In this document: in pieces, positions 20,679-40,525 of the stretch
Numbering within the stretch: position 1 is the stretch's first letter
Layout: each line of letters starts with the position of its first letter
DNA from: an uncultured Verrucomicrobiae bacterium
Lineage (GTDB): Bacteria > Verrucomicrobiota > Verrucomicrobiia > Limisphaerales > UBA11358
DNA length: 64,000 nucleotides
NCBI GenBank assembly: GCA_963714695.1
Contig: CAVQPQ010000003.1
Coordinates: 616,866-680,865, forward strand
Direction of reading: 5' to 3'
Translations under genes and position numbers: made by a program
Notes under the pieces: generated by a model
Told to the model about the DNA's origin: nothing
What the model saw: only the letters and a program-made list of their open reading frames with translations
The model's database searches: none

Positions 20679-20703
20679 CGATATGGGGTGTTTACCCCAT
20701 GCC
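20679..20703 (-). promoter_or_regulatory. Upstream motif copy 6 (palindromic form)
   Basis: Same sequence as copy 5, displaced by 2776 bp, 81 nt upstream of the start at 20598. Confidence 0.6.
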
Positions 20704-21883: not shown

Positions 21884-22023
21884 AGAAATTCAGGGATTAA
21901 CTGAGATTAAGATTAAGCATACGATTAAGATTACAATTTGGGGGGAATACCTGCGGTTTCTTAATCTTAATCCTGCTCATAATCGTAATCCAAATCAGTT
22001 CTGTTTGGTTCCAGCTGGCTCCA

Positions 22024-23178
22024 TCAGCGGGTTTTAGCCCCCTCCGCGCGGCCATTGCCGGGCGGAATTTGCGCAAAAATGGTCGTGCCTTTGCCGGGTG
22101 CGGATTCGACAGTGAATTTGCCGCCGACCATCTCCAATCGTTCCCTCATCCCGAGCAGCCCGAGGCGTTTGCCGCCATTGGCGTGCAAGGTGCGTTCCAC
22201 GTTAAAGGATTTGCCGTCGTCTTTGATTTTCAGGCCAATGCCACCCGGCAGTTTCTGGATGGTCACTTCCACCCGGCTGGCCCGGGCATGGCGGGCCACA
22301 TTGGTGAGCGCCTCCTGGGCGACGCGAAAGAGCACCGTTCGTTTGGCCGCGTCCAATCGTTCCACCGCCGCGAAGGCCGTCAAATGAACACGCACGCCCG
22401 TCCGCGCGGTAAAGCTTTTCATGAACGAATGCAGGGCGGGAATCAACCCCAGGTCGTCCAGCACCGTCGGGCGCAGTTCCCGGGCGAACCGGTGCACGAT
22501 GTCCACCGATTTTTCCACGAGCCGCTGGGTGCTGGAGATTTTTTTCTGGAGGCCCTTGTGGTTGAGCGTGGATTCGTTTTTCAAGGAAGCCAGCCGGATA
22601 TTGATGCCTGTCAAGGTCTGGGCGATTTGATCATGCAGTTCGCGGCTGATCATCTTGCGCTCTTCCTCCTGGGCCGACAGCAGCTGGCGGGACAGCAGCC
22701 GCAATTGTTCCTGCATGTGCCGCGACTGCTCCAGCAACTGGCTGTAGTGTTGCTCGCTCTTTCGGAGGGACTCCTCCACCAATTTGCGCTGGAGAATCTC
22801 CCGTTGCAAGTGCCGGTTTGAGGCGATCAGATCCAAGCTGCGCTGGATGAGCGACTGATTTAGTTGTACCAGTTGGTCATTGTCCTCCCGGGCCGCGCGA
22901 TGCGTTTTCTCGATGGGAGTAATGGCCTCGGCAAAAAAAGTCCCCGCCCGCCGGATCATCCGTTTCCGGGTGCCGGGCGAATGGCCCGGCAATATCAGGG
23001 TGGTCAGCGCCTGCTCATGGAACCGGGCGAGATCCAGCGTCTCCAAACCCAGGTCCATGGCCCGGCGTCCCAGCCCCTGCGCCGTCCCGCGCGGCGGGTT
23101 CGCCTGTGGACCTTCTTTCAGGTGTTTGCGCAGCGCCGCGACATATCGTTGCGCCAGCCCGTTTAGTTTACGTGCCAT
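22024..23178 (-). CDS. Sensor histidine kinase, HisKA_3 (NarX/DegS-like) plus HATPase_c
   Basis: H-box ISRELHDQIAQTL. ATPase KDDGKSF...GLLGMRERLEMVGG. The start at 23178 is chosen by alignment with the upstream paralog. A GTG at 23220 is an alternative. Confidence 0.85.
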   Translation of the reverse strand: MARKLNGLAQRYVAALRKHLKEGPQANPPRGTAQGLGRRAMDLGLETLDLARFHEQALTTLILPGHSPGTRKRMIRRAGTFFAEAITPIEKTHRAAREDNDQLVQLNQSLIQRSLDLIASNRHLQREILQRKLVEESLRKSEQHYSQLLEQSRHMQEQLRLLSRQLLSAQEEERKMISRELHDQIAQTLTGINIRLASLKNESTLNHKGLQKKISSTQRLVEKSVDIVHRFARELRPTVLDDLGLIPALHSFMKSFTARTGVRVHLTAFAAVERLDAAKRTVLFRVAQEALTNVARHARASRVEVTIQKLPGGIGLKIKDDGKSFNVERTLHANGGKRLGLLGMRERLEMVGGKFTVESAPGKGTTIFAQIPPGNGRAEGAKTR

Positions 23179-23191
23179 TTTAGGTGCTGCT

Positions 23192-23905
23192 TTACGTCCT
23201 ATTGTGAATTCCGAATTCACGAGCGAACCGTTTTATGCTTTTTACTGATTTATCCACCAGTCGCTGCGTGCTGACAATCTCTTTCTTGAGGCCGCTGGCG
23301 TTGATCGCGGCCTCCTTTTTCAACGTCAACAGGCGGACATTGATGCCCAGCAACGTCTGGGCAATCTCATCATGCAGGTCGCGGCTGATTTTCTTTCGTT
23401 TGTCCTCCTGCGCCGACAGAATCTGGTGCGTCAGGCGCTGCAAATGTTTTTGCAGGTGAAGTGATTCTTTCAACAGTTTCCGGGAGTGTTCCCCGCTTTT
23501 CTTGAGGGCCTGCTCCACGGACTTGCGCTGAGCGACGTCCTGCTTCAGGGAACGATGGGAGGCCACCAGGTCCGCCGTGCGCCGGCCCAGCGTCCGGTTC
23601 AGCCGGCTCAAGCGAACGTTGGCCTCGAGTGCGGCGCAATGCGTTTCTTCAATCGGAGTGATTGCCTCGGTAAAAAAAATCTCCGCCCGCCTGATGATCC
23701 CATCTTTGCTGCGGGAGGCTTCCAGCGTGGCGAGCGCGTCCTCGTGAATCCTGGCCACGTCCAATGTTTCCAGATTGAGATCCGCGGCCTGGCGTCCCAG
23801 CGCCAGCGCCGTCCCGCACGGCGGTTTCGCCCGCGAACCTTGCTTCAGGTGTTTTCGCAAGGCTGTCGCATATCGTTGCGACAACGCGGTCAACTTTCGT
23901 TTCAT
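23192..23905 (-). CDS. Kinase paralog retaining the N-terminal domain and HisKA_3 H-box but lacking HATPase_c
   Basis: Colinear with 22024-23178 up to ...VKSIKRFARE, including ISRDLHDEIAQTL. It then diverges (FGIHNRT) and stops 13 nt before the next start codon. Confidence 0.6.
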   Translation of the reverse strand: MKRKLTALSQRYATALRKHLKQGSRAKPPCGTALALGRQAADLNLETLDVARIHEDALATLEASRSKDGIIRRAEIFFTEAITPIEETHCAALEANVRLSRLNRTLGRRTADLVASHRSLKQDVAQRKSVEQALKKSGEHSRKLLKESLHLQKHLQRLTHQILSAQEDKRKKISRDLHDEIAQTLLGINVRLLTLKKEAAINASGLKKEIVSTQRLVDKSVKSIKRFAREFGIHNRT

Positions 23906-24004
23906 GTTGTATGCCGGATTCAAGCGCGGCATCACCGGGATGCATTGATCCCTCAACGGCGCGCCGCCAATCCAACACCACTATCAGGCACCGGCTTCAA
24001 TCTG

Positions 24005-24028
24005 TATATGGGGTGAACACCCCATAGC
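24005..24028 (+). promoter_or_regulatory. Upstream motif copy 7 (most symmetric: TATGGGGTG-aa-CACCCCATA)
   Basis: Lies in a divergent intergenic region, 84 nt upstream of the plus-strand start at 24112 and 100 nt upstream of the minus-strand start at 23905. Confidence 0.6.
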
Positions 24029-24111: not shown

Positions 24112-24579
24112 ATGAGCGAACATCAAAAACATACGGAGTTTCTGCGGCATTGCCTTCGCTACGGCGACAGCGCCGAGCACCAGGAGCTGGAGAAAGAGAT
24201 CACGCGGATTCAGCGCGACGAGCACTGTGTGCAACGCGCGGTGTGGCTCATGGCCATCTTGACTGCGCTCGCGGTGGCCGGCCTGGGCTATCCAGCGATC
24301 CTGGTGGAGAATTTTCCTTACAGCGCCCCGCAATTCATCGTAAACCTCGTTTGTGTGCTCGGTCTGGCATCGCTGCTTTGTCTGCTGGTTTTTATGGGCC
24401 TCGGGATGGTTTATCGCAGAATGCTGGACCAGCGGCGGGAGAAATCTCGTCAGTTGGTCACGAAGCTGCTGGCGTCCCGCCTGGGCAAGCAGGCTGCCAC
24501 ACCCTTGCAAGACAATCGTGCCGGCGCGGGAGATGGCAAAATCGTCCGGGTCGCCAATGAGTCAATGGTTCTCCAGTAA
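24112..24579 (+). CDS. Hypothetical membrane protein
   Basis: 155 aa with two clear hydrophobic helices (AVWLMAILTALAVAGLG, IVNLVCVLGLASLLCLLVFMGLG). It directly precedes the ATPase gene. Confidence 0.55.
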   Translation: MSEHQKHTEFLRHCLRYGDSAEHQELEKEITRIQRDEHCVQRAVWLMAILTALAVAGLGYPAILVENFPYSAPQFIVNLVCVLGLASLLCLLVFMGLGMVYRRMLDQRREKSRQLVTKLLASRLGKQAATPLQDNRAGAGDGKIVRVANESMVLQ

Positions 24580-24650: not shown

Positions 24651-27021
24651 ATGGTCATGCCGCTTGCTCCACCCCTTGCTGCGCCTGCCGCGGTTGCTGC
24701 GGCCAGCGATTCGCCTGACGGTCTCACGAGCGATGAGGCCCGCCGCCGGTTGGACCAGTTCGGTCCCAACTCCATGCCCGATACGTCCTCGCATCCGGCG
24801 CGAAGGGCGATTGAAAAACTGTGGGCGCCCATCCCCTGGATGTTGGAAGCGGCGATCGTGCTGGAGTTGGTGCTCGGCAAGTGCGTTGAAGCCGGGATTA
24901 TCGCGGTGCTTTTGTTGTTCAACGCCGCGCTTGGATTTTTTCAGGAGGGGCATGCCCAAGCAACGCTCGCCGCCCTGAAAAAACGGCTGGCGATGACCGC
25001 CTCGGTCCGTCGCGACGGCGCGTGGAAGAATCTCCCGGCCGCCGGCCTGGCGCCGGGGGACATCGTGAAGCTGTCACTCGGTGGCGTCGTCGCTGCGGAC
25101 GTGAAGCTGATCGAGGGAAACGTCCTGCTCGATCAATCCATGCTCACCGGTGAATCAATCGGCGCCGAAGCGGGCCCGGAGTTCCAAACTTTTGCCGGGG
25201 CATTGGTGCGCCGAGGCGAGGCGGTCGCCAGAGTTACGGCGACGGGAATCCACACGAAGTTCGGTCGCACGGCCGAGTTGGTCCGCACGGCCCATGTCGT
25301 CAGTTCGCAGCAAAAGGCCGTGTTGCGCGTGGTGCGCAATCTCGCGGTGTTCAACGGCTTCCTGATAATCATTCTCGTGGCGTATGCCCTGGGCCATGCG
25401 ATGCCGGGGCGCGAGATCATCCCTTTGGTTTTAACGGCGATTCTGGCATCCATTCCCGTTGCGCTGCCGGCCACGTTCACGCTGGCAGGCGCGCTGGGGG
25501 CGCGTGCATTGGCGCGTCAGGGCGTCTTGCCCACACGCCTCTCGGCCGTGGACGAAGCGGCGTCAATTGATGTGCTATGCGCCGACAAGACCGGGACGCT
25601 CACTCGCAATCAGCTTTCAGTAACCTTGGTTCGCCCGATGCCGGGCTTTGACGAGTCGCACGTTTTGACGATGGCGGCGCTCGCCAGCTCCGACGGTGGA
25701 CAGGATCCCGTAGATGGTGCCATTCGTTCCGCCGCCGCGCGGAAAGTCGCTGTCAATCCGCCCAAACTCCTTCACTTCGTGCCGTTCGATCCCGCGACGA
25801 AAATGTCCGAGGCGACGGCGACTGATCCAAGCCTTGGAACCGTGCGCATCATCAAGGGTGCCTTCACCGCCGTCGGCCCGCTCGCGGCTCCTTCACCCAT
25901 CGCGACGGCGGCAGCGAACGAACTGGAAACAAAAGGTTTTCGCGTGCTGGCGGTCGTGGCGGGACCGCCTGCGGCGATGCAGTTGCTGGGATTGATCGCG
26001 CTTGGCGACCCGGCCCGCGAAGATTCCGCCGCCCTGGTCACGGAACTGAAATCACTCGGCATCCGCACGGTGATGGTGACCGGCGATGCTCCAGCAACGG
26101 CGGCAATTGTAGCTCATGCCGTCGGTCTGGATGGCGCGGTGTGTCCACCCGGACCGTTACCAGAACAAAGTCCGTCCTGAAGATTTCGTCGTGTTTGCCG
26201 GCGTCCTGCCCGAAGACAAATTCAAACTGGTGAAAGCGTTTCAACAAACGGGCAACATCGTCGGCATGTGCGGCGACGGCGCCAACGACGCGCCCGCGCT
26301 GCGCCAGGCGCAAATGGGAATCGCGGTTTCGACGGCAACCGATGTCGCCAAGTCCGCCGCCGGCATGGTGCTCATCAATCCCGGACTTGCCGGCATTGTT
26401 TCCGCCGTCAAGGAAGGACGCATCACGTTCCAGCGCATTCTGACGTACACGCTGAATTCCGTGACCAAGAAGATAGTGCAGGTGCTGTTCCTGGGCGTCG
26501 GCCTCATTATGACCGGGCACGCGATTCTCACTCCCATGCTGATGATCATCGTGATGATGGCGGGTGATTTGCTCGGCATGTCGTTGACCACCGACAATGT
26601 CCGGCCTTCCTTGCTGCCAAATAATTGGCGCATCGGCGCCCTGACCATCGCGGGCATTTTCATGGGTGTTTCCGAACTCGCGTTCTGCGGCGGCGCGCTC
26701 GCCTTCGGACATTTCCGCATGGGCCTGGGCATCGCCACTTTGCAGACGCTGGCGTTCTTCGTCCTGGTTTGCGGAAACCAGGCAACCATGTATGCGGTGC
26801 GCGCCCGCGGGCGAATTTGGTCATCGCCCCGTCCCAGCCGCTGGCTCGTCTTGTCTTCCGTCACCGATCTGGGGATCGCCTTGACACTGGCCGGCTGCGG
26901 CTGGCTCATGCTGCCGCTGCCGTTCTGGGTGTTGGGCAGCGTGTTAGTCGGGGCTTTTGCCTTCGCCTTCGTCTTGGATTTGGCGAAGGTTTCAGTATTT
27001 AGTCGCTTAAAGATCACATAA
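24651..27021 (+). pseudogene. P-type ATPase (type III H+-ATPase-like) split by a +1 frame change near 26140-26175
   Basis: First frame: TGES, CADKTGTLT, MVTGD. Second frame: FAGVLPEDKF, GMCGDGANDAPAL and the C-terminal TM helices. The two ORFs overlap at 26116-26180. Confidence 0.8.
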
Positions 27022-27183: not shown

Positions 27184-27204
27184 GGTAGGGTTACACCCCA
27201 TAGC
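27184..27204 (+). promoter_or_regulatory. Upstream motif copy 8
   Basis: ggtagggttacaccccatagc followed by gcccgcaag, as in copy 3. Confidence 0.6.
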
Positions 27205-27224
27205 GCCCGCAAGATGGTCAGGCA

Positions 27225-27407
27225 ATGCTCTGGGCCGTGGAAAATAAAACCTGGCTCACCGAAGTGGAAGTTGCGGCTTGCATTATGGCGGTGGCAATGA
27301 CCGCGTTCACTTTAATGGTTGCTCATGCCCTGTGGAAGAGCCTAGCCGGCGACAACGATAAGAACACTTTTGCCGTCAGGTTGGCGGCGAACCAAAACAA
27401 AAAATAA
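27225..27407 (+). CDS. Possible small membrane protein
   Basis: 60-aa ORF with one hydrophobic helix, 21 nt downstream of motif copy 8 and upstream of the CsbD-family gene. No homology support. Confidence 0.3.
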   Translation: MLWAVENKTWLTEVEVAACIMAVAMTAFTLMVAHALWKSLAGDNDKNTFAVRLAANQNKK

Positions 27408-27428
27408 CAAATCACGAACTATTATATT

Positions 27429-27635
27429 ATGACCACACTCGAAATCAAAGGCGACTGGAACATCACCAAGGGCAAGCTGAAACAAAAATGGGCCAAGCTT
27501 ACTGATAATGATCTCCGTTACACCGAAGGCCGGCAGGAAGAACTGGTTGGCCGGATTCAAAAGCTCACCGGCGAAACCCGTGAAGTGGTCGAAAACGCGA
27601 TCAAGGAATCTTGCTCCCCCTGTTGCTGCAAATAG
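27429..27635 (+). CDS. CsbD family general stress protein
   Basis: EIKGDWNITKGKLKQKWAKLTDNDLRYTEGRQEELVGRIQKLTGETRE matches the CsbD pattern. Confidence 0.85.
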   Translation: MTTLEIKGDWNITKGKLKQKWAKLTDNDLRYTEGRQEELVGRIQKLTGETREVVENAIKESCSPCCCK

Positions 27636-28070
27636 GCTGTCAATGCGCGGGCGGCAGGCAGGGCGGCGCCGCCGCGCCGGCGGGCATGATGGCGCCTGCG
27701 AACCACGCTTTGAAATCCAGCCGCTCATTGACTCCGGGCGGCTGGCGCATTTTTCGGGGAAAATTCTCATGCGTCGGAGCGCCAGTCGCCTCGTTTCTCC
27801 GGCCAACAACACGGCCTTCGCGCGGGCGTTCCGACCGGTGAAAATAAAACCAGGCTTTGATTTCCGGACAGCATCCGCTATAATTGTTTCATCGCTGGCA
27901 TTTGAAGTGGGGCAGCAGACACACCCGGATGATGGGCTGCCAGCGTCTCCAAGTTGCCCGTCGTCCCCTTCTGAGCGCCGCGGTGGCCGGCGTTTTGTCT
28001 GTCGCCACCTTCTTTTCCAAAACCATTCCCGTGCTTGTCGGCGATGCCGGCTTGGTGCTAACGTCTCGCC

Positions 28071-28259
28071 ATGCCGACGCTGGAACTCAAGCCAACGCAC
28101 AAAGTTGTCACCGCCTATTACGACAACTTGGCGAAATTCGCCAAACTCGGCATCAAGCACAAAACCGCCGTCCGCTCCGCGTTTCAGGAATTGCTGGAAC
28201 ACTGCGCCCGCCAGTTCGATTGGAAACTCGTTCCCGAATACGCCATCAAACGCAAAGGC
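28071..28259 (+). pseudogene. N-terminal remnant resembling the start of large restriction-modification methylase/helicase fusion proteins
   Basis: MPTLELKPTHKVVTAYYDNLAKFAKLGIKHKTAVRSAFQELLEHCARQFDWKLVPEY is recalled by eye from such enzymes. After ~63 aa the ORF runs into simple repeats. Confidence 0.35.
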
Positions 28260-28314
28260 CTGCAGGAATCGCCGACGCTGCGAGCAGCCCGGTCACCAGC
28301 CAGGAAACCGCCCA

Positions 28315-28374
28315 AATCAAACCGGATCAAACTGAATCAAACCAAATCAAACCAAATCAAACCGAATGAAAACA
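28315..28374. repeat. Six tandem 10-bp units (AATCAAACCN)
   Basis: aatcaaaccg gatcaaactg aatcaaacca aatcaaacca aatcaaaccg aatgaaaaca, with an exact 10-nt period. Confidence 0.9.
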
Positions 28375-28437
28375 CCGCCAGCCAGCCAGCGGGAAGGACA
28401 TGTGATCAGTCCCCGGCTGAACCGGGCCTCGAACCGT

Positions 28438-28459
28438 GGTAGGGTTACACCCCATAAGC
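28438..28459 (+). promoter_or_regulatory. Upstream motif copy 9
   Basis: ggtagggttacaccccataagc, 87 nt upstream of the dodecin start. Confidence 0.6.
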
Positions 28460-28545
28460 AAAGGATCGGCCCGGCCCGTAATTTGTGAACTGAAAAATTG
28501 AATGGCGGAATCCGTTAACGGCAACCAAACACAAAAAAACCGAAT

Positions 28546-28755
28546 ATGAAAGACCCGGTCTATAAACTCATCGAACTCACCGGCACCTCCACCACTTCCA
28601 TTGAAGATGCGGTGGACAAGGCCATCAAACGCGCGCACAAAACCATAAAGAACCTGCGGTGGTTCCAAGTGATCGAAACGCGCGGCAGCATCGAAAAAGG
28701 GAAGGTTCATCACTGGCAGGTGACCATCAAAATCGGCTTCACCGTGAATGAATGA
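28546..28755 (+). CDS. Dodecin family protein
   Basis: VYKLIELTGTSTTSIEDAVDKAIKRAHKTIKNLRWFQVIETRGSIEKGKVHHWQVTIKIGF parallels bacterial dodecins. Confidence 0.85.
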   Translation: MKDPVYKLIELTGTSTTSIEDAVDKAIKRAHKTIKNLRWFQVIETRGSIEKGKVHHWQVTIKIGFTVNE

Positions 28756-28792
28756 TCGGGCAGAAATGCGCGAAACCAAGTGAAGAACAATC

Positions 28793-28990
28793 ATGCCTCA
28801 AGGCGATAAATCCAGCTACACCGACAAACAGAAACGGCAGGCGGCACACATCGAAGCCGGCTACGGGAAAAAAGGTGTCAGCGTGAAAACCGCAGAAGCT
28901 CGCGCTTGGGCCACCGTGAACCAACTCACCGGCGGCGGAAAAAAGAGCGGCTCTGGCAGGAAGAATCACAAGATGATGCCAGTAGTATGA
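28793..28990 (+). CDS. Small basic conserved protein (stress-associated, unnamed family)
   Basis: MPQGDKSSYTDKQKRQAAHIEAGYGKKGVSVKTAEARAWATVNQ. Its stop overlaps the grpE start as ATGA. Confidence 0.55.
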   Translation: MPQGDKSSYTDKQKRQAAHIEAGYGKKGVSVKTAEARAWATVNQLTGGGKKSGSGRKNHKMMPVV

Positions 28991-29535
28991 ACCCTGAATT
29001 TCCCAATCCTCCGGCCACTGAACTGGAGCCAAACGCCACTCTGGTCGAGACCACGGCCACGGAGTCGGATGCGCTCCTGAAGGATCTCGCCGAACAAAAA
29101 GATTTGCATTTGCGCCTGGCCGCCGACTTTGAGAATTTCAAGCGGCGCAGCCGGCGGGAAAGCGAGACCCGCGCGGCCGCGCAAAAGGAATCTTTCATCG
29201 TTGAACTGTTGCCGGTCATTGACAACCTCGAACGGGCTTTGGCCTCCGGCGCATCGCGGGACTCCGCGCTGTTTCATCAAGGGGTGGATATGACGTTGCA
29301 ACAATTGCAACAATTGCTCCGCCAGCACGGCGTCGAGAGTGAGGAAATCGTTGGCCAGCCGTTCGACCCGCACCGGCATGAAGCGCTTTCGCGAGGCCAT
29401 GATCCGGCTCAACCCGACCACGCCATTCTCTCGGTGCTCCAGCGCGGCTATCATCGGGGTGAGAAGATGGTTCGACCGGCCAAAGTGGTGGTGAACGACC
29501 TGACGCCTTCCAAGCCCGCCCGCCATGCCCGTTGA
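28987..29535 (+). CDS. grpE: Nucleotide exchange factor GrpE
   Basis: [17 protein letters not shown]...[12 protein letters not shown]...FDPHRHEAL...[16 protein letters not shown]. Confidence 0.9.
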
Positions 29536-30043
29536 ATTTAAAGACTATTACCGGGTCCTCGGAGTGTCTCCGAAGGCATCGGACGAGGAAATCAAGAAGG
29601 CTTTCCGGACGCTTGCCCGGAAGTATCATCCCGATGTCGCCAAAGACAAAAAGATGGCGGAGGAAAAATTCAAGGAAGTCAACGAGGCCAATGAAGTCTT
29701 GAGCCATCCGGAGAGTCGCAGAAAATATGACCAGTTGGGCGCGAATTGGAAAACCGGCGCGGAATCGCGTCCCCAGCCGGACTGGGCTGGAGGCCGGTCC
29801 GCCGGTTGGGGAGGGCGGGTTCAAGAAGACGAATTCCAATTCGAGGGCACGGGTTTCAGTGATTTTTTTGAACAGTTTTTTGGCGGTCGCGCCGGCCGGT
29901 CTCGCGGCGGTTCGCCGTTTGAACACTTTGGCGCTGCGAACGGCAGCGATGAACCCGAGGCGGCGCTCCGAGGCCGGGATATTCAAGGGGACATTCTTAT
30001 CACTCTCGATGAAGTGGTTAAGCCCTCTAAACAGAGTGTGTGA
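29525..30043 (+). CDS. J-domain protein (CbpA/DnaJ-like) lacking the C-terminal substrate-binding domains
   Basis: [32 protein letters not shown] plus a G/F-rich region. It ends shortly after [16 protein letters not shown], where CTD I normally begins. Confidence 0.8.
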
Positions 30044-30143
30044 GGGCCGGAACAGTAAAGCTTCCTCGTTCGCCTGCGCCTTTTCGTTCCACAATTTAGC
30101 GCCAGCCGGATCAGTTTTTCCGGGAGCGTCTCCAATGAAGCAC

Positions 30144-30164
30144 GGTAGGGTTACACCCCATAGC
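30144..30164 (+). promoter_or_regulatory. Upstream motif copy 10
   Basis: ggtagggttacaccccatagc, 79 nt upstream of the start at 30243. Confidence 0.6.
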
Positions 30165-30242
30165 AAAAAACCGCCCGCCAGCGTAGTTTCGCCAAATTGG
30201 CAGGCACAACCGCAAACCAAACACGCAACGAAAATCATAATT

Positions 30243-30689
30243 ATGAATAATAAAACATGGGTCATCACCTTCCTTTCCATCGCCGCTTTTGCGGTCGGGT
30301 GCGACAAACAGCAAACCACTTCCCAGCAGATCGAGACGGTCAAAACCGAAACCAAACAAGCCGCGCAGGACATAAAGGATTACACCTTCGCGCAAAAGGA
30401 CGAATTTGTTAAAACCATGCAGGGTCAGTTGGACGCTCTTAACAAGGACTTGGACCAGATCTCCGCCAAAATCGAAAGCTCCAGCGACGCGGTCAAGGCT
30501 GAGGCCAAACCCAAACTCCAGGCATTGCGCGACCAAGCGGCCCAATTGAACAAACAACTGGCCGATGCCCAGAACGCCACCGAGTCCACTTGGGACAGCG
30601 TCAAAGCCGGCTGCTCGAAGGCTTACGATGCGACGAAGGACGGTTTCAACCAGGCCCGCCAGTGGGTGAGTGATAAAATCGCGCCTTGA
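30243..30689 (+). CDS. Helical lipoprotein (apolipoprotein / LEA-like composition)
   Basis: Lipobox FLSIAAFAVGC. The remainder is K/Q/A/D-rich and predicted helical. Confidence 0.65.
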   Translation: MNNKTWVITFLSIAAFAVGCDKQQTTSQQIETVKTETKQAAQDIKDYTFAQKDEFVKTMQGQLDALNKDLDQISAKIESSSDAVKAEAKPKLQALRDQAAQLNKQLADAQNATESTWDSVKAGCSKAYDATKDGFNQARQWVSDKIAP

Positions 30690-30760
30690 GGTGAGAGGGG
30701 AAACGTTGTGAATAAAACAGCAAGCCAAAAAACATAAACATCAAAAATGAAAGAAACGAT

Positions 30761-31111
30761 ATGAAAAAAACATCTGTAAACACGGGCCAACCCCTCAAGG
30801 TGTTGACGTTGATCCTCTGCCTCGGCGCGATGCCAGTGCTCCTGGGCGTGACCGGCTGTACCACCGGCAGCCGCTACGAGCAAAGCTCGGGTGAACGAAT
30901 TGACGACCATAACACTTCTTCCCGCGTCCGGGCCGCGCTGGCAGACGACTCGCAATACAAGTACGACGGCGTCAACGTGGAAACGTTCAAGGGTGTGGTT
31001 CAGTTGAGCGGCTTTGTCAACACGAGGGACCAGAAAAACCGGGCCGGGGATATTGCCAGGCAAGTCAGTGGCGTGCATGATGTCGAAAACAACATCACCG
31101 TCAAAGAGTGA
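30761..31111 (+). CDS. BON domain lipoprotein (OsmY-like)
   Basis: Lipobox LLGVTGC. BON segment VNVETFKGVVQLSGFVNTRDQKNRAGDIARQVSGVHDVENNITV. Confidence 0.85.
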   Translation: MKKTSVNTGQPLKVLTLILCLGAMPVLLGVTGCTTGSRYEQSSGERIDDHNTSSRVRAALADDSQYKYDGVNVETFKGVVQLSGFVNTRDQKNRAGDIARQVSGVHDVENNITVKE

Positions 31112-31256
31112 TCGAATCGAGAAAGTTGCATTCGCAACACGCCGACAGTGGAATCCCCGCTGTCGGCGCGTTGACAGCGGGTGGAAACTAAGCCGGAATG
31201 AACTGCCCGAGGAGGTTCGCCGGTTGCTCAATTGCGAGTTGGATTATAATGGTTTC

Positions 31257-31277
31257 GGTAGGGTAACACCCCATAGC
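31257..31277 (+). promoter_or_regulatory. Upstream motif copy 11
   Basis: ggtagggtaacaccccatagc, 74 nt upstream of the start at 31351. Confidence 0.6.
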
Positions 31278-31350
31278 GCACGCGCTGCTTCTTGATTTAG
31301 TGTCAGCCGGTCAGGCAACCAACCACGCCTGCCCCAAATAAAGGAATTAC

Positions 31351-31872
31351 ATGAAAACCAAACTCATTCTGCTCGCCATCCGCAGTTCTCTGGCGCTGGC
31401 CGCGCCCGCATTGCTGGCGCAAGATACCAACACCAACGGCACCAACATCCTCACCCAAACCTGGAAATACCAAAAAGCGTTTGAAAACGACCGGTCGTTG
31501 GGCGAACGATCCCTTCTTCCTCCCGGGCTTAAGGAAAAGTTGAAACTCACCGACGACCAGAGAACCGATCTGAAGCCAATCGAGGCTGACTTTGCCAAAA
31601 CCTGCGAGGAATACCAGACTGCCAACCAACCCCGGATTGACGCCGCCGAGGAGGCGAACCGGCAGGCGCGCGCAGCGAAAGACACGGCACAAATAGAGGC
31701 AGCGCGCAAACAGTTGCAACAGGTCTGGGCCGGTCTCCGCCCATACCGGGTGGCCGCCGTCAATCAAATCAGGCCTCTGCTGACGCCGGATCAACTCGCG
31801 ATTTTGGACGATCCGAAGAACCGGTGGCGCGAAAATCATGGTCAGGAAGCGAATGATCCGTCTGCGAATTGA
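31351..31872 (+). CDS. Periplasmic LTXXQ-motif protein (Spy/CpxP-like)
   Basis: Signal peptide plus LKLTDDQRTDLKPI and LLTPDQLAILDD motifs. Confidence 0.65.
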   Translation: MKTKLILLAIRSSLALAAPALLAQDTNTNGTNILTQTWKYQKAFENDRSLGERSLLPPGLKEKLKLTDDQRTDLKPIEADFAKTCEEYQTANQPRIDAAEEANRQARAAKDTAQIEAARKQLQQVWAGLRPYRVAAVNQIRPLLTPDQLAILDDPKNRWRENHGQEANDPSAN

Positions 31873-31986
31873 ATCATGACGGCGATGCCGGAAAAGAAGC
31901 CCTTGAAAAGTCTTCATTTGCCGGGAGATTCTGCAAACTGAGGTCGGGCTGAATCAGTCTTCGCCGAACCATTGCCCAAAATACAC

Positions 31987-32007
31987 GGTAGGGTTACACC
32001 CCATAGC
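31987..32007 (+). promoter_or_regulatory. Upstream motif copy 12
   Basis: ggtagggttacaccccatagc, 79 nt upstream of the start at 32086. Confidence 0.6.
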
Positions 32008-32085
32008 GAAGGACCAGCCCGCAACGTACCGTGCTGCTCGTACAAAAACATCAATTAACGCAACAACAACCGAAAGTAAAAGCAA

Positions 32086-32868
32086 ATGAAAATGAAATCA
32101 ACTTACACACTCGCGCTCCTGGCAGCCACGAGCGCCCTGTTAGTCACCAGCCCATCCGTGCGCGCCTCCGATACGGACAGCCGCATCGAGTCATCCGCCG
32201 CAAAGTCGTATGTTTTCAAAACCTACCTCAAGGATGATTCCATCAAGACTGTATCCAAAGACGGTGCCGTCACCCTGAGCGGAACGGTGACCAAAGCGTC
32301 CGACAAGTCCCTGGCCCAGGACACCGTGGCGAGCCTGCCCGGCGTCATTAGCGTGGACAATCAACTGCTGGTCAGCGGCGAACAACCCGCTGAACATTCA
32401 GACACGTGGATCGGCCTGAAAGTGAAATCCGCACTCCTGTTCCATCGCAATGTGAGCGCCACCGGCACCACCGTGGAGGTGAAAGACGGCGTCGTCATCT
32501 TAACCGGTGAAGCCAGCAATCTGGCGCAAAAGGAACTCACCACCGAATACGCCAAGGATATTGACAATGTCAAAGCGGTCGTGAATGACATGACGATTGC
32601 CAAGACTCCGGCAACGCCAGACGCAACCACCGGCGACAAGATTGATGACGCCTCCATCACCGCCCAGGTCAAATCGTCGTTGCTGTCGCACCACTCGACC
32701 AGCGCCCTGAAAACGTCGGTTTCAACGACGGATGGCGTGGTGACGTTAGGCGGCATTGCCAAAAACGCCGCCGAAAAGAGCCTGGTCACCAAACTTGTCA
32801 CCGACATCAACGGTGTGAACAGTGTGATCAACAACATGACCATCGCCGTGCCGGTGGCCAGCAACTAA
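32086..32868 (+). CDS. Periplasmic protein with three BON domains (OsmY-like)
   Basis: Signal peptide. Three repeats of the pattern (V/T)...DG(A/V)V(T/I)L(S/T/G)G...(A/L)...(V/I)xx(V/I)(D/N)N. Confidence 0.85.
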   Translation: MKMKSTYTLALLAATSALLVTSPSVRASDTDSRIESSAAKSYVFKTYLKDDSIKTVSKDGAVTLSGTVTKASDKSLAQDTVASLPGVISVDNQLLVSGEQPAEHSDTWIGLKVKSALLFHRNVSATGTTVEVKDGVVILTGEASNLAQKELTTEYAKDIDNVKAVVNDMTIAKTPATPDATTGDKIDDASITAQVKSSLLSHHSTSALKTSVSTTDGVVTLGGIAKNAAEKSLVTKLVTDINGVNSVINNMTIAVPVASN

Positions 32869-32943
32869 ATTGACAGATTGCTGTTGGCTGGTGCGAAAGC
32901 GCGCCAGCCCGCAGTGACCAAAGCAAGCTAATAGGAAAATCTT

Positions 32944-33096
32944 ATGTTATACACAATTGCGGTAGTATTGCTCGCTCTGTGGCTACTTGGCCTGGTGACC
33001 AGTTACACAATGGGCGGGTTTATTCACATCCTGCTGGTCGTTGCCATTGTCATGGTGCTCGTCAACCTCATCTCCGGGCGCAAGCGGCTGAATTAA
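32944..33096 (+). CDS. lmo0937-family small membrane protein (not in the supplied ORF track because it is under 60 aa)
   Basis: MLYTIAVVLLALWLLGLVTSYTMGGFIHILLVVAIVMVLVNLISGRKRLN, read directly from the sequence. Confidence 0.7.
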   Translation: MLYTIAVVLLALWLLGLVTSYTMGGFIHILLVVAIVMVLVNLISGRKRLN

Positions 33097-33136
33097 AAAA
33101 AGCTGCCAACCGAAGAAAAGAAACTACAGATTCAAT

Positions 33137-33352
33137 ATGAATGCAAAAAACATTGTCGCAGTCGTCCTGGTCACTCTGGGCATCGTGGTGCTCGCTTATT
33201 CCGGCATCACCTTCACGACCCCTGGAAAACCTGTCGAGTTCCTCGGAATGCACTTTGCAACCACAGACAGCCACTTTATCCCGCCCGTCGTCGGGGCGCT
33301 TGCGCTCGTCGGCGGAATCGTGTTGTTGGTTGTGAATCCCAAGCGGGTCTGA
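33137..33352 (+). CDS. Small two-TM membrane protein
   Basis: 71 aa with N- and C-terminal hydrophobic helices. Confidence 0.5.
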   Translation: MNAKNIVAVVLVTLGIVVLAYSGITFTTPGKPVEFLGMHFATTDSHFIPPVVGALALVGGIVLLVVNPKRV

Positions 33353-33636
33353 TGAGTGGAGTCGAAGCGGTTACCGGCATGAAAGTAAAAATATTCGAAG
33401 TCGTTCTTCATAAGCTGCCCTCCGGCAAGTCGCCGGCGACAGCTTTGGAAGAGCAGATCAACGAGTTCCTCTCACAACACCCGGACCTGCGGTTGGTAAC
33501 CACGCACATGAGCACCCTGGTCACGCCCGCCGAGCCGAATGCCATGCCCAAAACCGAGGAATCCTCCATCATCATTTTCTGCACCCTGTTCTATACCGAC
33601 CACGGAACGAGTGATGCCGCTTTATGCAGACCCTGA
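33352..33636 (+). CDS. Hypothetical protein
   Basis: ORF abutting the previous stop codon. An alternative start (MKVKIFEV) lies at 33379. No family recognised. Confidence 0.3.
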   Translation: MSGVEAVTGMKVKIFEVVLHKLPSGKSPATALEEQINEFLSQHPDLRLVTTHMSTLVTPAEPNAMPKTEESSIIIFCTLFYTDHGTSDAALCRP

Positions 33637-33800
33637 AGCTCATTTGCCTGACCATCCTCCAACTGGTCAAACAGGTCTGGTTCCTTCCCCAATCGTTTGC
33701 GAATGCCGTCAAGCAAAGACGGGCGCGGTCTGTCTGGAACGAACACGAAGTCGAACGGCTCGACCGGATACGCAACCCGTCAAAGTATCTGGGAAAGTGA
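33624..33800 (+). CDS. Possible 58-aa protein (not in the ORF track)
   Basis: MQTLKLICLTILQLVKQVWFLPQSF...NEHEVERLDRIRNPSKYLGK. It overlaps the previous ORF end by 13 nt. Confidence 0.3.
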   Translation: MQTLKLICLTILQLVKQVWFLPQSFANAVKQRRARSVWNEHEVERLDRIRNPSKYLGK

Positions 33801-35827: not shown

Positions 35828-38050
35828 ATGAATCAATTCACGCGCCGGGTTTTGTTTCTCCTGTTTTTTTTATCCGGGTTTTGCAGCCTCGCGTATCAGG
35901 TAGTCTGGACACGCATGGCTTTTGCGTCTTTCGGGATCATTACTCCGGTGCTCTCCGTGGTGCTTTCGGTGTTCATGCTGGGACTGGGGGTGGGTTCATG
36001 GGCGGGTGGGTGCTGGATCTCCGGCTTGGTCCGGAGAACGGGCCGGTCAGCCATCATCTTTTACGCCTTTGCCGAACTGTTGATCGGGGTGGGCGCGTTT
36101 GCGGTTCCGAAGTTGTTCGCCTTGGGCGAGCACACTTTGCTGGCAACCGGTCAGACGGATTCATTCCGTTATCTGTCGCTTTCGGCCCTGGTCCTGACGG
36201 CCGCCATTCTGCCCTGGTGTGTGTGCATGGGCACAACCTTCCCCTTCATGATGGCCTACATCCGGGAGCAGTACCGTGACGACACGCAAAGTTTCAGTTT
36301 TCTTTACCTCGCGAATGTGCTTGGCGCCATGAGCGGGACATTACTGACGGCGGTCGTCTGGGTGGAAATCCTGGGATTCCGCCACACCCTTTGGCTGGCG
36401 GCCGCCAGTAACTTCACCATTGCCACCATCGGCGTCGCTCTGGGCTGGCGGCGGCATCCGGCGGTCGTCCCGCAGGAAAAGGCCGGGCACCCGGCCCCTG
36501 ACACCGGATCGCCACGTTCTCCGATGCTTCCGGGATGGATGATCAAGGTGATTTTGTTTGCAACCGGTTTTGTCGCCATGGCCATGGAGGTGGTTTGGAC
36601 CCGTGCATTCACACCGGTCTTGAAAACCCAGGTGTATTCCTTCGCTCTGATTGTTTTCACCTATTTGGGGGCCACTTTTCTTGGCTCGTTGATGTATCGC
36701 CGGGATCTGCGAAGGCATTGTCCCCGTTCGATTGGGAAATTGATTTCCGCGCTGGCGATCACGGTTTTTCTGCCGGTACTGGCCAACGATTCGCGGCTGG
36801 TGACGGCACATTTCTGGACCAGTTCCATGGATGCAGTCAGCGCGATGATTGTACTGGCCAGCCTTTGCCCTTTTTGCGCTTTGTTGGGTTATTTGACCCC
36901 GGGCCTGATTGATGAGTATGGAGCCGGTCGGCCGAAAAACGCCGGACAGGCCTACGCCATCAATGTCCTGGGCTGCATCCTGGGTCCGCTCTTCGCCTGC
37001 TATGTATTACTTCCCCGCTGTAGCGAGCGTCATGCCTTGATTCTACTCAGCCTGCCGTTTCTGGCGCTGGGCTTCTTTCTTTACCAACCCCGTTTCCAGT
37101 GGCAACGCTGGGGGATGGGATTCGCCACCGGAGCGGTGCTCGTCTGGGCCGCGTTCTTCTCCGAAGATTTTGAAGGGATGCTGTCAAAAAGCGCCAAGCA
37201 CACCGTTATCCGGCGGGATTACACCGCGTCGGTTATTTCCTTCGGCGAAGGCTCGGAGCGGTTTCTGCTGGTCAATGGCATTGGCATGACCCGGTTGACG
37301 CCCATTACCAAGTTCATGGCCCATTTGCCACTGGCTTTTCACAATGGCCGCCCGGAATCGGCTCTGATCATCTGTTTCGGCATGGGCACAACCTATCGCT
37401 CGGCCTTGAGTTGGAAGCTCCAGACCACCGCCGTGGAACTGGTGCCTAGCGTGATGAATGCTTTTGGATTTTATCATCCGGATGCGGCGCGCTTTGTCAA
37501 CGACCCCAACGGACGAATTGTCATTGATGATGGCCGGCGTTATCTCAACCGTATCACCAATAAATTCGACGTCATCGTGGTTGACCCGCCGCCACCGGTT
37601 GAAGCGGCCGGTTCCAGTCTGCTCTTTTCCCGGGAGTTCTGCGTTCTGGCCCGACAACATTTGAAGCCCGGCGGTATTCTTCAATTATGGTATCCCGGTG
37701 GGAACGACAACACCACGGCCGAAGCCGTCGTCCGCGCGGTCCGTGAGTCGTTTCCCTGCATGCGCTGCTTCCCATCAATGGAAGGCGGAGGCCTGCATCT
37801 GCTCGCCTCCTCGGAACCCATCGAGATGCAGACCGCTGCAGCCTTGGCGGCGAACATGCCCGCCGCCGCAAAAACCGATTTGTTAGAGTGGAGCCCTTCC
37901 CCCAATTTGCCAGGTTATTTAAACTTGGTTGTCGCGCACGAAATTCCCATCAAAAATCTCTTAAATTCCAACCCTAAAGTTCAAATCACCGATGACCACC
38001 CCTTCAACGAGTATTATCTGTTACGGCAGTTGGGCCTGGGTTGGCGCTGA
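35828..38050 (+). CDS. Polytopic membrane protein fused to a spermidine-synthase-fold (class I SAM-dependent transferase) domain, tandem copy 1
   Basis: 740 aa. N-terminus FFLSGFCSLAYQVVWTRMAF plus ~12 hydrophobic segments. C-terminal domain ICFGMGTTYRS...FDVIVVDPPPPVEAAGSSLLFSREF...LKPGGILQLW. Confidence 0.85.
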   Translation: MNQFTRRVLFLLFFLSGFCSLAYQVVWTRMAFASFGIITPVLSVVLSVFMLGLGVGSWAGGCWISGLVRRTGRSAIIFYAFAELLIGVGAFAVPKLFALGEHTLLATGQTDSFRYLSLSALVLTAAILPWCVCMGTTFPFMMAYIREQYRDDTQSFSFLYLANVLGAMSGTLLTAVVWVEILGFRHTLWLAAASNFTIATIGVALGWRRHPAVVPQEKAGHPAPDTGSPRSPMLPGWMIKVILFATGFVAMAMEVVWTRAFTPVLKTQVYSFALIVFTYLGATFLGSLMYRRDLRRHCPRSIGKLISALAITVFLPVLANDSRLVTAHFWTSSMDAVSAMIVLASLCPFCALLGYLTPGLIDEYGAGRPKNAGQAYAINVLGCILGPLFACYVLLPRCSERHALILLSLPFLALGFFLYQPRFQWQRWGMGFATGAVLVWAAFFSEDFEGMLSKSAKHTVIRRDYTASVISFGEGSERFLLVNGIGMTRLTPITKFMAHLPLAFHNGRPESALIICFGMGTTYRSALSWKLQTTAVELVPSVMNAFGFYHPDAARFVNDPNGRIVIDDGRRYLNRITNKFDVIVVDPPPPVEAAGSSLLFSREFCVLARQHLKPGGILQLWYPGGNDNTTAEAVVRAVRESFPCMRCFPSMEGGGLHLLASSEPIEMQTAAALAANMPAAAKTDLLEWSPSPNLPGYLNLVVAHEIPIKNLLNSNPKVQITDDHPFNEYYLLRQLGLGWR

Positions 38051-38306
38051 TTCGCTCTTAACCTGAGCCGACAAAACTTAGTTCCGACAGGGATTTGAAT
38101 TGGATGACTCGCCCGCCAGTTCGCCAGGCGCAACTGCGGCACGACTTCACCGAAGCCGATTATGATGTAGCAGCGTTCAGCAGACCGCCGCATCTCTTTT
38201 CCATGTTTTTTCAGATGGCGGCGCTCTGCCGAAAGCCGCTGCATTCCCCGGCCCAAGGTTTTTGAAGCTTGTCCCGGGCGGGCATGACGTGTAGAGGGTA
38301 GGCCGC

Positions 38307-40525
38307 ATGAATCAATTCACGCGCCGGGTTTTGTTTCTCCTGTTTTTTTTATCCGGGTTTTGCAGTCTCGCTTATCAGGTGGTATGGACGCGCATGGCCT
38401 TTGCCTCGTTCGGCATCATCACTCCGGTGCTTTCCGTGGTGTTGTCGGTCTTCATGCTGGGACTGGCCGCCGGTTCCTGGGCGGGCGGGCGATGCATTGT
38501 TTCACTGGTTGAGAAAACCGGGCTTTCGGCGGTCGTCTTTTACGCGGGCGCGGAATTTTTGATCGGACTGGGCGCGTTCGCGGTTCCCAAATTATTTGCC
38601 ATGGGCGAGCACATTTTGCTGGCCGCGGGTCAAACCAATTCCATCGGCTACCTTTCCTTGTCGGCCCTGGTTCTGGCGTTTTCCATTCTGCCCTGGTGCC
38701 TGTTCATGGGGACAACCTTTCCCCTGATGATGGCTTACATCCGGGAGCGGGACTGTAAAAACACGGAAAGTTTCAGCTTTCTCTATCTGGCCAACGTGTT
38801 GGGGGCGATGAGCGGCACGCTTTTGACCGCCGTGGTTCTGGTCGAACTGTTGGGATTCCGCCACACGCTTTGGGTGGCGGCCGCCGGCAATTTCACCATC
38901 ACCTTCATCGGAGGTTGTCTGGGCTGGAAACAACGAGATTTTGCGGCCAGGGGCTTGACGGAGGCGGATAATTCAGCCGGGCCGGGCAACCCGCCCTCCG
39001 CTGGCCCTTCCCGCAGCCGGCTGATCAAATGGATTTTGTTTTCGACGGGTTTTGGCGCAATGGCCATGGAAGTGGTTTGGACGCGCGCGTTCACGCCGGT
39101 TTTGAAAACACAGGTGTATTCCTTTGCCCTGGTCGTCTTTACCTATCTGGGCGCAACGTTTGCCGGCTCGTGGTGGTATCGCCATCATCTCAGAAATAAG
39201 TCACCTTGGCCGGTGGCAACACTGATGGCGCTGCTCGTGATCGCCGTTTTTCTTCCCGTGGCAGTCAACGACCCCAGAATTGTGAACATGGACTGGATGT
39301 TTACCGTCTATGTCGGCAGCGCGATGATGGTGCTGGCGAGCATCGTACCGCTTTGTGCCATCCTGGGGTATTTGACGCCGAGTTTGATTGACGGATATGC
39401 CGGCGGCCAGCCCGGCCTTGCCGGCGAGGCTTATGCCATCAATGTTCTCGGTTGCATTTTGGGGCCGTTGTTCGCCTGCTATGTTCTGTTGCCTTGGATG
39501 GGCGAGTCCTGCGCGCTGATGATTCTCAGCCTGCCTTTTTTGGCGTTTTATTTTCTTGGTTGGAAATCGCTACCCATGGGACAACGCCTGTTTTCGAGTC
39601 TGGCCGCTGGCGCGCTCGCGAGCTATTCATTGTTTTTCCCACACAACTATCAAGATTATGTGTCGAGGCAATCCAGCCGGATGGAAGTGCGGCGGGACTA
39701 TGCCGCCTCGGTCATTTCCGCCCAGGTGGTGGGCGGCAAGGTGCTTTTGGTTAATGGCATCGGCATGACCAAACTGACGCCGATCACCAAATTCATGGTT
39801 CATTTGCCGCTGGCTTTTCATCTAGGAAAACCTGAATCGGCGCTGATCATCTGCTTCGGCATGGGCACCAGCTACCGGTCGGCATTGAGCTGGGACATTG
39901 ATACCACAGCGGTGGAATTGGTGCCCAGCGTGACGAAGGCGTTCGGATTTTACCACACCAACGCGGCGCAAATTCTGGCCAATCCCAAAGGACACGTCGT
40001 GATTGACGACGGGCGGCGTTTTCTTCGACGCACCCGGGAAAAATTTGACGTGATTGTGATTGACCCGCCGCCACCGGTGGAAACTGCCGGGTCCAGCCTC
40101 CTTTTTTCCGCGGAATTTTACGCCCTGGCCAAACAGCATTTGAACCCGCACGGAATTCTCCAGGCTTGGTTCCCCGGGGAGATCGGGTGACCACGCAAGC
40201 CGCCTTGCGCTCCATTCACGACGCGTTCCCCCACGTGCGTTGTTTTCATTCCGTGGAAGGCTGGGGCATGCACATGCTGGCGTCAATGGATCCCGTCGAA
40301 GTGCCGACCCCCGAACAACTCCTGGTGCGCATGCCCGCCAGTGCAAGCAACGACTTGTTGGAATGGTCCGACGCCCGTGATTTGCCTGCGTATGTGGGAC
40401 AGGTGGTTTTGCGCGAGGTCCCCGTTGAAAAAAGCCTCAACCCGGATTCCGCAATTCAAATCACCGATGACCATCCCCTCAACGAATACTTCCTGTTGCG
40501 ACAGAAGGGCCTGTTTGAATACTGA
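38307..40525 (+). pseudogene. Tandem copy 2 of the same family, interrupted by a 1-nt frame change in a C4G4 run (40172-40179)
   Basis: ORF 38307-40190 ends ...ILQAWFPGEIG*. ORF 40166-40525 continues the homology (DRVTTQAALRSIHDAFPHVRCF...) in another frame. Confidence 0.8.

Follow-up and report, generated by a model that had tools for sequence, protein, structure and literature searches.

The systems closest to the one described here are known from other phyla. The genes of the DosR regulon of Mycobacterium tuberculosis cluster near the autoregulated operon of their regulator, and its divergent transcription units share one box; the regulators of the LiaSR/VraSR and DesKR systems bind inverted repeats upstream of, or overlapping, the -35 region and autoregulate their own operon; and stress protein families such as BON, OsmC, CsbD, DUF883 and YflT sit, in Bacillus, E. 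coli and the Alphaproteobacteria, in the regulons of SigB, RpoS and EcfG. DosR recognizes the Dos box, TTSGGGACTWWAGTCCCSAA, a palindrome of 20 bp whose outer parts are a G-run and a C-run (PMC2275270). In our searches of the literature, no general stress regulator was found described for the Verrucomicrobiota, the Planctomycetota or their relatives, and nothing was found either on a general stress regulon of the Planctomycetes-Verrucomicrobia-Chlamydiae (PVC) superphylum or on the sequence of the box that is the subject of this work. We have analyzed a stretch of 64,000 nucleotides (hereafter the window; contig CAVQPQ010000003.1 of assembly GCA_963714695.1) from the metagenome-assembled genome of a soil verrucomicrobial bacterium, in which a conserved box of 20-21 bp recurs upstream of genes for small stress proteins and for signalling proteins. 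With moderate confidence we take this box to mark a DosR-like general stress regulon of the PVC superphylum that would be activated by a response regulator.

Five copies of the box, with the consensus GGTAGGGT[T/A]ACACCCCATAGC, lie on the plus strand of a stress-protein island at 27184-33800, where each heads a transcription unit (at 27184, 28438, 30144, 31257 and 31987), just as an initial annotation of this DNA had described. They differ by zero to two mismatches from GGTAGGGTTACACCCCATAGC, of which the shuffled window gives 0.00 matches. That annotation had also stated that most genes carry a copy of their own, and this holds for transcription units, each of which has its box, but not for genes, five boxes serving some 14-15 open reading frames (ORFs) in units of one to five genes. 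Similarly, the 6.6-kb island that it delimited does contain these boxes but is part of a larger motif-bearing cluster of about 33 kb, dense in sensor kinases and response regulators. The window as a whole contains 11 distinct boxes against 0 expected by chance (12 if a bidirectional palindrome at 24007-24028 is counted twice), all of them confined to positions 108-32007, that is, to the first 32 kb, with none in 33-64 kb. Two types can be told apart: an asymmetric one, class A, with seven copies, and a palindromic or nearly palindromic one, class B, with four. The latter reads ATGGGGT[A/G]AACACCCCAT, and its palindromic form, ATGGGGTG-WW-CACCCCAT, is a perfect 8-2-8 palindrome. Within the window, all four class B boxes lie upstream of signalling genes, and class A boxes lead to effector-type genes in all six cases where the gene that follows is known.

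The box is conserved far beyond this genome. A scan for the exact 20-mer GGTAGGGTWACACCCCATAG, with one genome per species divided into 8-kb tiles, found it in at least 118 genome tiles. Among the tiles listed, the Verrucomicrobiota are represented by Limisphaerales/Pedosphaera types, Akkermansiaceae, Opitutae and Spartobacteria, and other phyla by Lentisphaerae/Victivallales, Kiritimatiellae, Planctomycetota (Pirellulales, Phycisphaerae and Sedimentisphaerales) and a Hydrogenedentes bin, together with a few bins bearing odd labels. The matches listed comprise 135 distinct contexts of the box, whose flanks are unrelated to one another except for a -10 hexamer and an ATG.

The genes that follow the box are as diverse in sequence as they are coherent in kind. 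The first ORFs downstream of 137 boxes, drawn from the matches listed and tallied by Pfam family, form 71 sequence clusters. The BON family accounts for 15 of these ORFs, sll1863/HBM-like proteins for 8, AMPK1_CBM for 6, OsmC and Ice_binding for 5 each, CsbD, DUF883, PRC barrel, YflT, MlaA and HisKA_3 kinases for 3 each, and PAS kinases for 2; the THIVI_2564 family of small membrane proteins adds a further 7. Downstream genes in the Lentisphaerae include YflT and an Fe/Mn superoxide dismutase (SOD); DUF5670 is found in the Pirellulales, an SPFH protein in the Kiritimatiellae and an ice-binding-like protein in the Victivallales. Since families of this kind belong elsewhere to the SigB, RpoS and EcfG regulons, their presence downstream of the box renders it well supported by comparative genomics that the box marks an uncharacterised general, osmotic and envelope stress regulon across the PVC superphylum. 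The initial annotation had proposed such a regulon from the island by itself, and the proposal is strengthened by the finding that the 20-mer heads BON, sll1863-type, OsmC, CsbD, DUF883, YflT, PRC, SOD and lmo0937 genes in numerous genomes from several PVC phyla.

The distance between the box and the presumptive start of transcription is likewise constrained. A TAnnnT hexamer begins 20-22 nt past the 20-mer in 99 of the 135 contexts (0-4 at control offsets), and an ATG is found at +32 to +35, i.e. 6-9 nt after that hexamer, in 44 of the 135; this fixed spacing puts a -10 element and a first codon at the positions expected for leaderless mRNAs, which are thereby indicated. About one third of the class A boxes (contexts L009-L126) precede such apparently leaderless ORFs, the rest being followed by A-rich leaders without an obvious Shine-Dalgarno sequence. 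Class B boxes have the same -10 spacing as class A, and where a palindromic one separates divergent genes, it is flanked by a -10 on either side. From the leaderless starts and the position of the -10 element it follows that the box is centred near -43 and extends from about -52 to -32, the placement expected of a class II activator site (overlapping the -35 and centred near -41.5). A simple scan of the island found no canonical -35/-10 promoter before its genes; compared with the sigma-70 pattern, the TAnnnT hexamers of the same 99 contexts correspond to the -10, and TAGCGn stands where the -35 TTGACA, 16-18 nt upstream, would be. In 78 sites picked by the right half of the box and the -10 only, the left half keeps the mirrored GG at 96% and 90%. 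On these patterns, the motif is most likely the operator of an activator-dependent promoter, and neither a sigma-specific -35/-10 pair nor an RNA element.

The same data bear on whether the motif might act in RNA, as a hairpin GGGU-UAC-ACCC involved in processing or termination, or might be a mobile repeat akin to repetitive extragenic palindromes (REP) or miniature inverted-repeat transposable elements (MITE). Its core can indeed pair as a hairpin of 4-6 bp, and one terminator-like match is present on the minus strand at 31989-32003, but the coding strand lacks a T-run and, in a simple scan, terminator-like matches in the island do not exceed the shuffle expectation. The near identity of the copies would suit a repeat, yet their flanks are unrelated, so that there is no larger mobile unit, and the box is conserved across phyla before non-homologous genes (the 71 clusters mentioned above). 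The fixed -10 and the leaderless ATGs put the box upstream of the transcript, and it is found in divergent intergenic regions as well. Rfam returned no match, either for the whole window at the gathering threshold or for the island at E<=1, and ARAGORN no tRNA. We consider it extremely improbable that the motif is an RNA element or a mobile repeat.

A dedicated alternative sigma factor encoded elsewhere, an analogue of SigB, RpoS or EcfG with the motif as its promoter element, was what the initial annotation had envisaged, on the grounds that these gene families are under sigma control in other phyla. Promoters of SigB/SigF or EcfG have a -35 of GTTTAA or GGAAC and a -10 of GGGTAT or CGTT, spaced by 12-17 nt. 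The resemblance of GGGTAA/GGGTTA in the box to the SigB/SigF -10 GGGTAT is a point in favour of such a factor, but the leaderless ATGs put the start site 33 nt past the box, so that GGGTWA cannot be the -10, the actual -10 being TAnnnT rather than GGGTAT or CGTT, and the profile of the 135 contexts contains no conserved element 12-17 nt upstream of the box. The unusual invariance of the box and the overlap of its promoter-proximal CATAGC with the -35 could also be expected of a sigma factor; on the other hand, the box is palindromic or pseudo-palindromic, works bidirectionally at 24007 and reaches to about -52. No sigma factor gene is annotated in positions 1-60 kb of the window, and none recurs in the linked loci, in which it is a two-component system that recurs. 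A dedicated sigma factor thus appears very unlikely to us, in view of a palindromic or pseudo-palindromic box at about -52 to -32, a TAnnnT -10 and a linked HisKA_3 kinase pair with a NarL-type regulator. Two more specific readings were considered and rejected: a SigB-like -35 located 12-17 nt upstream of GGGTWA, where a few copies have GGATTC-like hexamers and the 135 contexts show no conservation, and sigma-54, whose GG-N10-GC spacing misfits the box as judged by inspection of the motif, with no pattern scan.

In the window, the two-component system in question is a kinase-kinase-regulator operon on the minus strand (21206-23956). Upstream of it, at 24007-24028, lies the perfect class B palindrome ATGGGGTG-AA-CACCCCAT, which can be read on both strands, has -10-like hexamers 22 nt off each side (TAACCT on the plus strand, GATAGT on the minus strand) and separates the operon from a divergent plus-strand unit consisting of a 155 aa protein (24112-24579) and a P-type cation ATPase (24651-27021, split into two ORFs). 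The regulator, RR1 (21206-21883, minus), is of the NarL/FixJ type, with a canonical phospho-receiver (PF00072, 92 bits) and a C-terminal GerE/LuxR domain (PF00196, 67.8 bits). Its receiver residues Asp56 (D56) and K106 are nearly invariant in an alignment of orthologues, and its nearest solved relatives are VraR/LiaR, DesR, NarL and DevR (VraR 5hev, E=8e-44; DesR 4ldz, E=3e-29). The GerE helix-turn-helix (HTH) of RR1 is almost unchanged from Verrucomicrobiota to Kiritimatiellae, and this near-invariance, matching that of the box, was counted in favour of RR1 as its reader, as was the dimer-type symmetry of the box, visible in the class B palindrome and in the mirrored GG of the left half.

The two kinases are paralogues. 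HK3a (22024-23178, minus) is an apparently cytoplasmic histidine kinase with HisKA_3 (46.9 bits) and HATPase_c (53.3 bits) domains and an invariant H182; HK3b (23192-23905, minus; also L064:2531-3274), which opens the operon behind the palindromic box, has HisKA_3 (40.8 bits) and no ATPase domain, and may be a pseudo-kinase partner. The HK3b-HK3a pair is kept as far as Kiritimatiellae. An RsbU_N-like N-terminus in the HK3 proteins is a weak match, at 15-19.6 bits against a PF08673 cutoff of 25.5; the search for HK3a homologues returned only close relatives (79-96% identity), many of which, at 80-87% identity, have a precomputed PF08673 match. Apart from this N-terminus, HMM (hidden Markov model) searches detected no recognisable sensor domain in the HK3 kinases, and the window showed no partner of the RsbT or STAS type. 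In B. subtilis, the N-terminal domain of RsbU takes the stressosome signal via RsbT (PMC9237108).

The linkage between box and operon extends across phyla and can be recovered from either side. By tblastn, RR1 or HK3 homologues are present in 30-odd of the 118 box tiles listed, about 20-25 of the matches being at the orthologue level. Among the tiles concerned are some from Phycisphaerales, from Kiritimatiellae, where RR1 is 62-65% identical and accompanied by both kinases, and from Spartobacteria; in the last of these two divergent boxes lie between the kinase and the neighbouring gene. In the reverse test, 80 metagenome loci picked by HK3a homology alone (49-76% identity, 525 kb) were found to hold 82 distinct boxes, against a chance expectation that a back-of-envelope calculation puts at <0.01. 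These boxes are most frequent at two places, immediately upstream of the operon and immediately behind RR1.

The data show that the box exists and is conserved, that a -10 and leaderless starts follow it at fixed spacing, that stress genes lie downstream of it and that it is linked in the genome to the kinase/regulator operon. From this we infer that RR1 binds the box, that its binding activates rather than represses, and that the inducing signals are stresses. Stress signals, perhaps by way of the nearby box-controlled PAS and hybrid kinases, would lead HK3a to phosphorylate RR1, the apparently cytoplasmic HK3b/HK3a pair acting as the phosphate source and HK3b as a partner or modulator. A dimer of phosphorylated RR1 would then bind the box at about -43 and recruit, in the style of a class II activator, RNA polymerase carrying the primary sigma factor, which at promoters without a usable -35 would need this recruitment. 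In such a promoter, a GC-rich spacer would separate the box (20-21 bp) from a TAnnnT -10 of the housekeeping type, and transcription would start about 7 nt after the -10, giving rise to transcripts that are leaderless or have an A-rich leader. The RR1 operon, itself preceded by the palindromic box, would be under positive autoregulation. The predicted regulon comprises, in this genome, the CsbD, dodecin-GrpE-J protein, sll1863-type, BON/OsmY-like, Spy-like, lmo0937 and THIVI_2564 genes and, elsewhere, OsmC, DUF883, YflT, PRC, SOD and ice-binding-like genes, and would tend to cluster around the regulator genes.

Several observations weigh against the assignment of RR1 as activator. The assignment rests on genomic linkage, which in close relatives may be due in part to conserved synteny, and under strict thresholds the box falls within -1300 to +3200 in only 16 of the 27 two-flank kinase loci. 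Class A, the dominant form of the box, lacks symmetry: compared with the palindrome, its left half-site has moved in by one base. It is also invariant at all 20 positions, which is tighter than the usual site of a response regulator and may mean that a second protein, or region 4 of a sigma factor, reads it as well; the promoter-proximal CATAGC, which overlaps the -35, may be what region 4 reads. In addition, a paralogous LuxR-type HTH protein (3505-4083 in the window; RR2 elsewhere) is itself linked to boxes and has a nearly identical recognition helix, SPKTVEYHR compared with SIKTVEKHR in RR1.

This paralogue lends some plausibility to the view, unlikely in our estimation, that a factor other than RR1 reads the box, be it the LuxR-type HTH protein or RR2, a division of classes A and B between the paralogues, or an unlinked regulator. 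A GerE-only or RR2 paralogue occurs in about 12 of the box tiles listed, at 67-87% identity and itself downstream of boxes, and among the tiles listed both the class B boxes and the RR2/GerE-only genes are found in Verrucomicrobiota only, which suggests a lineage-specific second tier in that phylum. In the distant phyla, however, RR1 and HK3 are the partners of class A and no RR2 is seen in the tiles, although these span only 8 kb and absence from a tile is weak evidence. As for a division between paralogues, the window itself agrees with it, class B preceding signalling genes (4/4) and class A effector-type genes (the six with a known gene), but across genomes the genes downstream of class B are a mixture of regulators and effectors. 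Class B as a regulator-only box was rejected on account of this mixed set, and the idea of two tiers keeps its hypothetical character.

With RR1 retained as the preferred reader of the box, and the whole regarded as a moderately probable account, a more specific and more speculative formulation can be offered, which we would put forward only tentatively. The PVC general stress response would run through an RsbU_N-type HisKA_3 kinase pair and a NarL-type regulator acting on a letter-perfect 20-bp operator, and not through an alternative sigma factor; in the Verrucomicrobiota it would be two-tiered, with the palindromic box on signalling genes, the asymmetric one on effector genes, and two paralogous LuxR-type proteins as their readers.

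With regard to the genes of the island, family calls were made by Pfam/NCBIfam HMM searches of the island proteins against curated cutoffs. The CsbD, dodecin, GrpE, BON, LTXXQ, lmo0937 and sll1863 families all score above their cutoff, and the assignments of the initial annotation (CsbD, dodecin, GrpE, J protein, single and triple BON, LTXXQ and lmo0937) pass their HMM thresholds throughout. All of the listed genes in 27184-33800 are on the plus strand, as are their class A boxes. The first box (GGTAGGGTTACACCCCATAGC, 27184-27204), with a -10-like AATGCT at 27224-27229 and a predicted transcription start site (TSS) at ~27236, precedes a membrane ORF of 56-60 aa (27225/27237-27407) and CsbD (27429-27635, 55.5 bits). 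The second (GGTAGGGTTACACCCCATAAG, 28438-28458; -10 TAATTT at 28479-28484, predicted TSS ~28491) precedes dodecin (28546-28755, 103 bits), a basic protein of 65 aa without a family match in the HMM searches (28793-28990), GrpE (28987-29535, 142 bits) and a J-domain protein of 172 aa (29525-30043), which has a DnaJ J-domain (92.6 bits) and is not a full DnaJ. Downstream of the third (30144-30164; -10 TAGTTT at 30184-30189, predicted TSS ~30196) are two lipoproteins, a helical one belonging to the sll1863-family stress response proteins of NCBIfam (30243-30689, 60.9 bits, cutoff 35) and one with a single BON domain (30761-31111, 74.8 bits). The fourth, a GGGTAA variant (31257-31277; -10 TAGTGT at 31298-31303, predicted TSS ~31310), heads an LTXXQ (Spy/CpxP-like) periplasmic protein (31351-31872), which clears its cutoff only narrowly (28.8 against 24.3 bits). 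The fifth (31987-32007; -10 TACCGT at 32027-32032, predicted TSS ~32039) is followed by a triple-BON OsmY-like protein (32086-32868, 147 bits, three domains), an lmo0937/DUF5670 peptide (32944-33096, 64 bits) and small ORFs of 71 aa (33137-33352), 94 aa (33352-33636) and 58 aa (33624-33800).

The equivalog cutoffs of NCBIfam are missed by the J-domain protein for DnaJ_bact (124 against 377 bits), by the triple-BON protein for OsmY (83 against 174 bits) and by the LTXXQ protein for Spy (23.5 against 174 bits); by their scores, these three are to be regarded as family members and not as orthologues of E. coli DnaJ, OsmY and Spy. An ORF of 123 aa (28071-28442), situated after the CsbD unit and before the box of dodecin, has neither a Pfam match nor a box of its own and ends in a 10-bp tandem repeat, AATCAAACCG, in 5.7 copies (28312-28371). 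In a strain variant (L005:1-960, ENA ERZ25039466 contig_69687), AT-rich DNA with an HTH_3 (XRE-type) gene on it has taken the place of the dodecin box and of the 5' part of dodecin, and the GrpE/J unit there is thereby without a box. Just to the right of the island, at 35828-45285, lie three tandem paralogues of ~740 aa; all three have a spermine/spermidine synthase domain, and none has a box.

To the left of the island, positions 3.5-24 kb form a dense signalling cluster with hybrid kinases, receivers and two LuxR-type HTH proteins. A class A box at 4689-4709 (minus) heads a small membrane protein of the THIVI_2564 family (4422-4619), downstream of which, on the same strand, is the receiver-less LuxR-type HTH protein at 3505-4083; in the latter the receiver domain is replaced by a low-complexity, coiled-coil-like repeat (TEQAE[A/T]R), its orthologues elsewhere being full response regulators. 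A further class A box, at 108-128 (minus), precedes a gene that runs past the start of the window. These two minus-strand boxes (108-170 and 4689-4755) have about 45 nt of upstream flank in common (GGGATTGA(A)TTCG.AAA...), unlike the other copies, which points to a local duplication. Apart from the bidirectional palindrome, class B boxes are found on the minus strand at 20680-20701 (CATGGGGTAAACACCCCATATC, -10 TATTAT), heading a PAS histidine kinase at 18649-20598; at 17904-17925, a duplicate of the former, heading a PAS histidine kinase at 16182-17822; and at 8336-8357, with a -10 TACAAT and an ATG 6 nt later (leaderless), ahead of a conserved 63 aa ORF (8113-8304) and a receiver-only regulator (7613-8116). 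The two PAS kinase genes (16182-17925 and 18649-20701, minus) have near-identical upstream regions, box and -10 included, encode N-termini that hardly differ over the first 80 residues or more, and look like a recent tandem duplication. Beside the RR1 operon, an ORF of 76 aa (20843-21073, minus) corresponds to the C-terminal half of a receiver domain only, and similar fragments are present in the related loci L029, L045, L087 and L102. On the other side of the operon, the P-type cation ATPase is split by one extra A at 26164 relative to the near-identical contig L001; the copies in L001 and L003 are intact (789 aa), and the extra A reflects a genuine frameshift or else an error of assembly.

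The Verrucomicrobiota, Planctomycetota and their relatives are abundant in soil, peat and water, and the present analysis supplies a precisely defined cis-element, predicts where transcription of each unit starts, and names a candidate regulator with its kinase pair. With these in hand, a simple search for the pattern suffices to list the putative regulon of any PVC genome.

How does this putative regulon compare with the described systems? Its effector families overlap with those of the sigma-controlled responses, that is, of SigB in Bacillus, RpoS in E. coli and PhyR-NepR-EcfG in the Alphaproteobacteria: CsbD, OsmY/BON, OsmC, YflT (general stress protein 17M), DUF883/ElaB, PRC-barrel proteins and SOD. 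Common to both is also the organization in many small units, each with its own promoter. The N-terminus of the HK3 kinases, moreover, weakly resembles the RsbU domain on which, in the SigB pathway, the signal from the stressosome acts (PMC9237108). In contrast, the promoters described here combine a housekeeping-type -10 with a palindromic operator in the place of the -35, and the regulatory genes linked to them encode a two-component system, where the former responses have a module of sigma and anti-sigma factors.

As to the regulatory proteins, RR1 has its closest solved relatives among the regulators of LiaSR/VraSR and DesKR of the Firmicutes, which are likewise paired with HisKA_3 kinases, and its sequence is less close to DevR than to VraR/LiaR and DesR. 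Those systems, however, have membrane sensors of envelope or temperature stress and small regulons, whereas the kinase pair described here appears to be cytoplasmic, one of its members lacking an ATPase domain, and the predicted regulon is broad and spans phyla.

The closest analogue as a whole is the DosR/DevR-DosS/DosT system of M. tuberculosis, in which a NarL/LuxR-family regulator works with HisKA_3-type kinases, as is proposed for RR1 and the HK3 pair, DevR being itself among the solved relatives of RR1, and in which several dozen genes of stress and dormancy are preceded by the Dos box. The likeness does not extend to the details. The box of the PVC bacteria, which reads ATGGGGTGWWCACCCCAT, ATGGGGTG-WW-CACCCCAT or, in its asymmetric form, GGTAGGGTWACACCCCATAG, departs from the Dos box TTSGGGACTWWAGTCCCSAA, and only the layout of a palindrome with a G-run and a C-run is common to the two. 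DosS and DosT are GAF-haem kinases, while HK3a and HK3b are without a GAF domain and have an RsbU_N-like N-terminus; the genes controlled are those for universal stress proteins, HspX and nitroreductases in the one case and, in the other, by prediction, those for BON, CsbD, sll1863, Spy-like and GrpE/J proteins; and the former system belongs to the Actinobacteria, the latter to the PVC superphylum.

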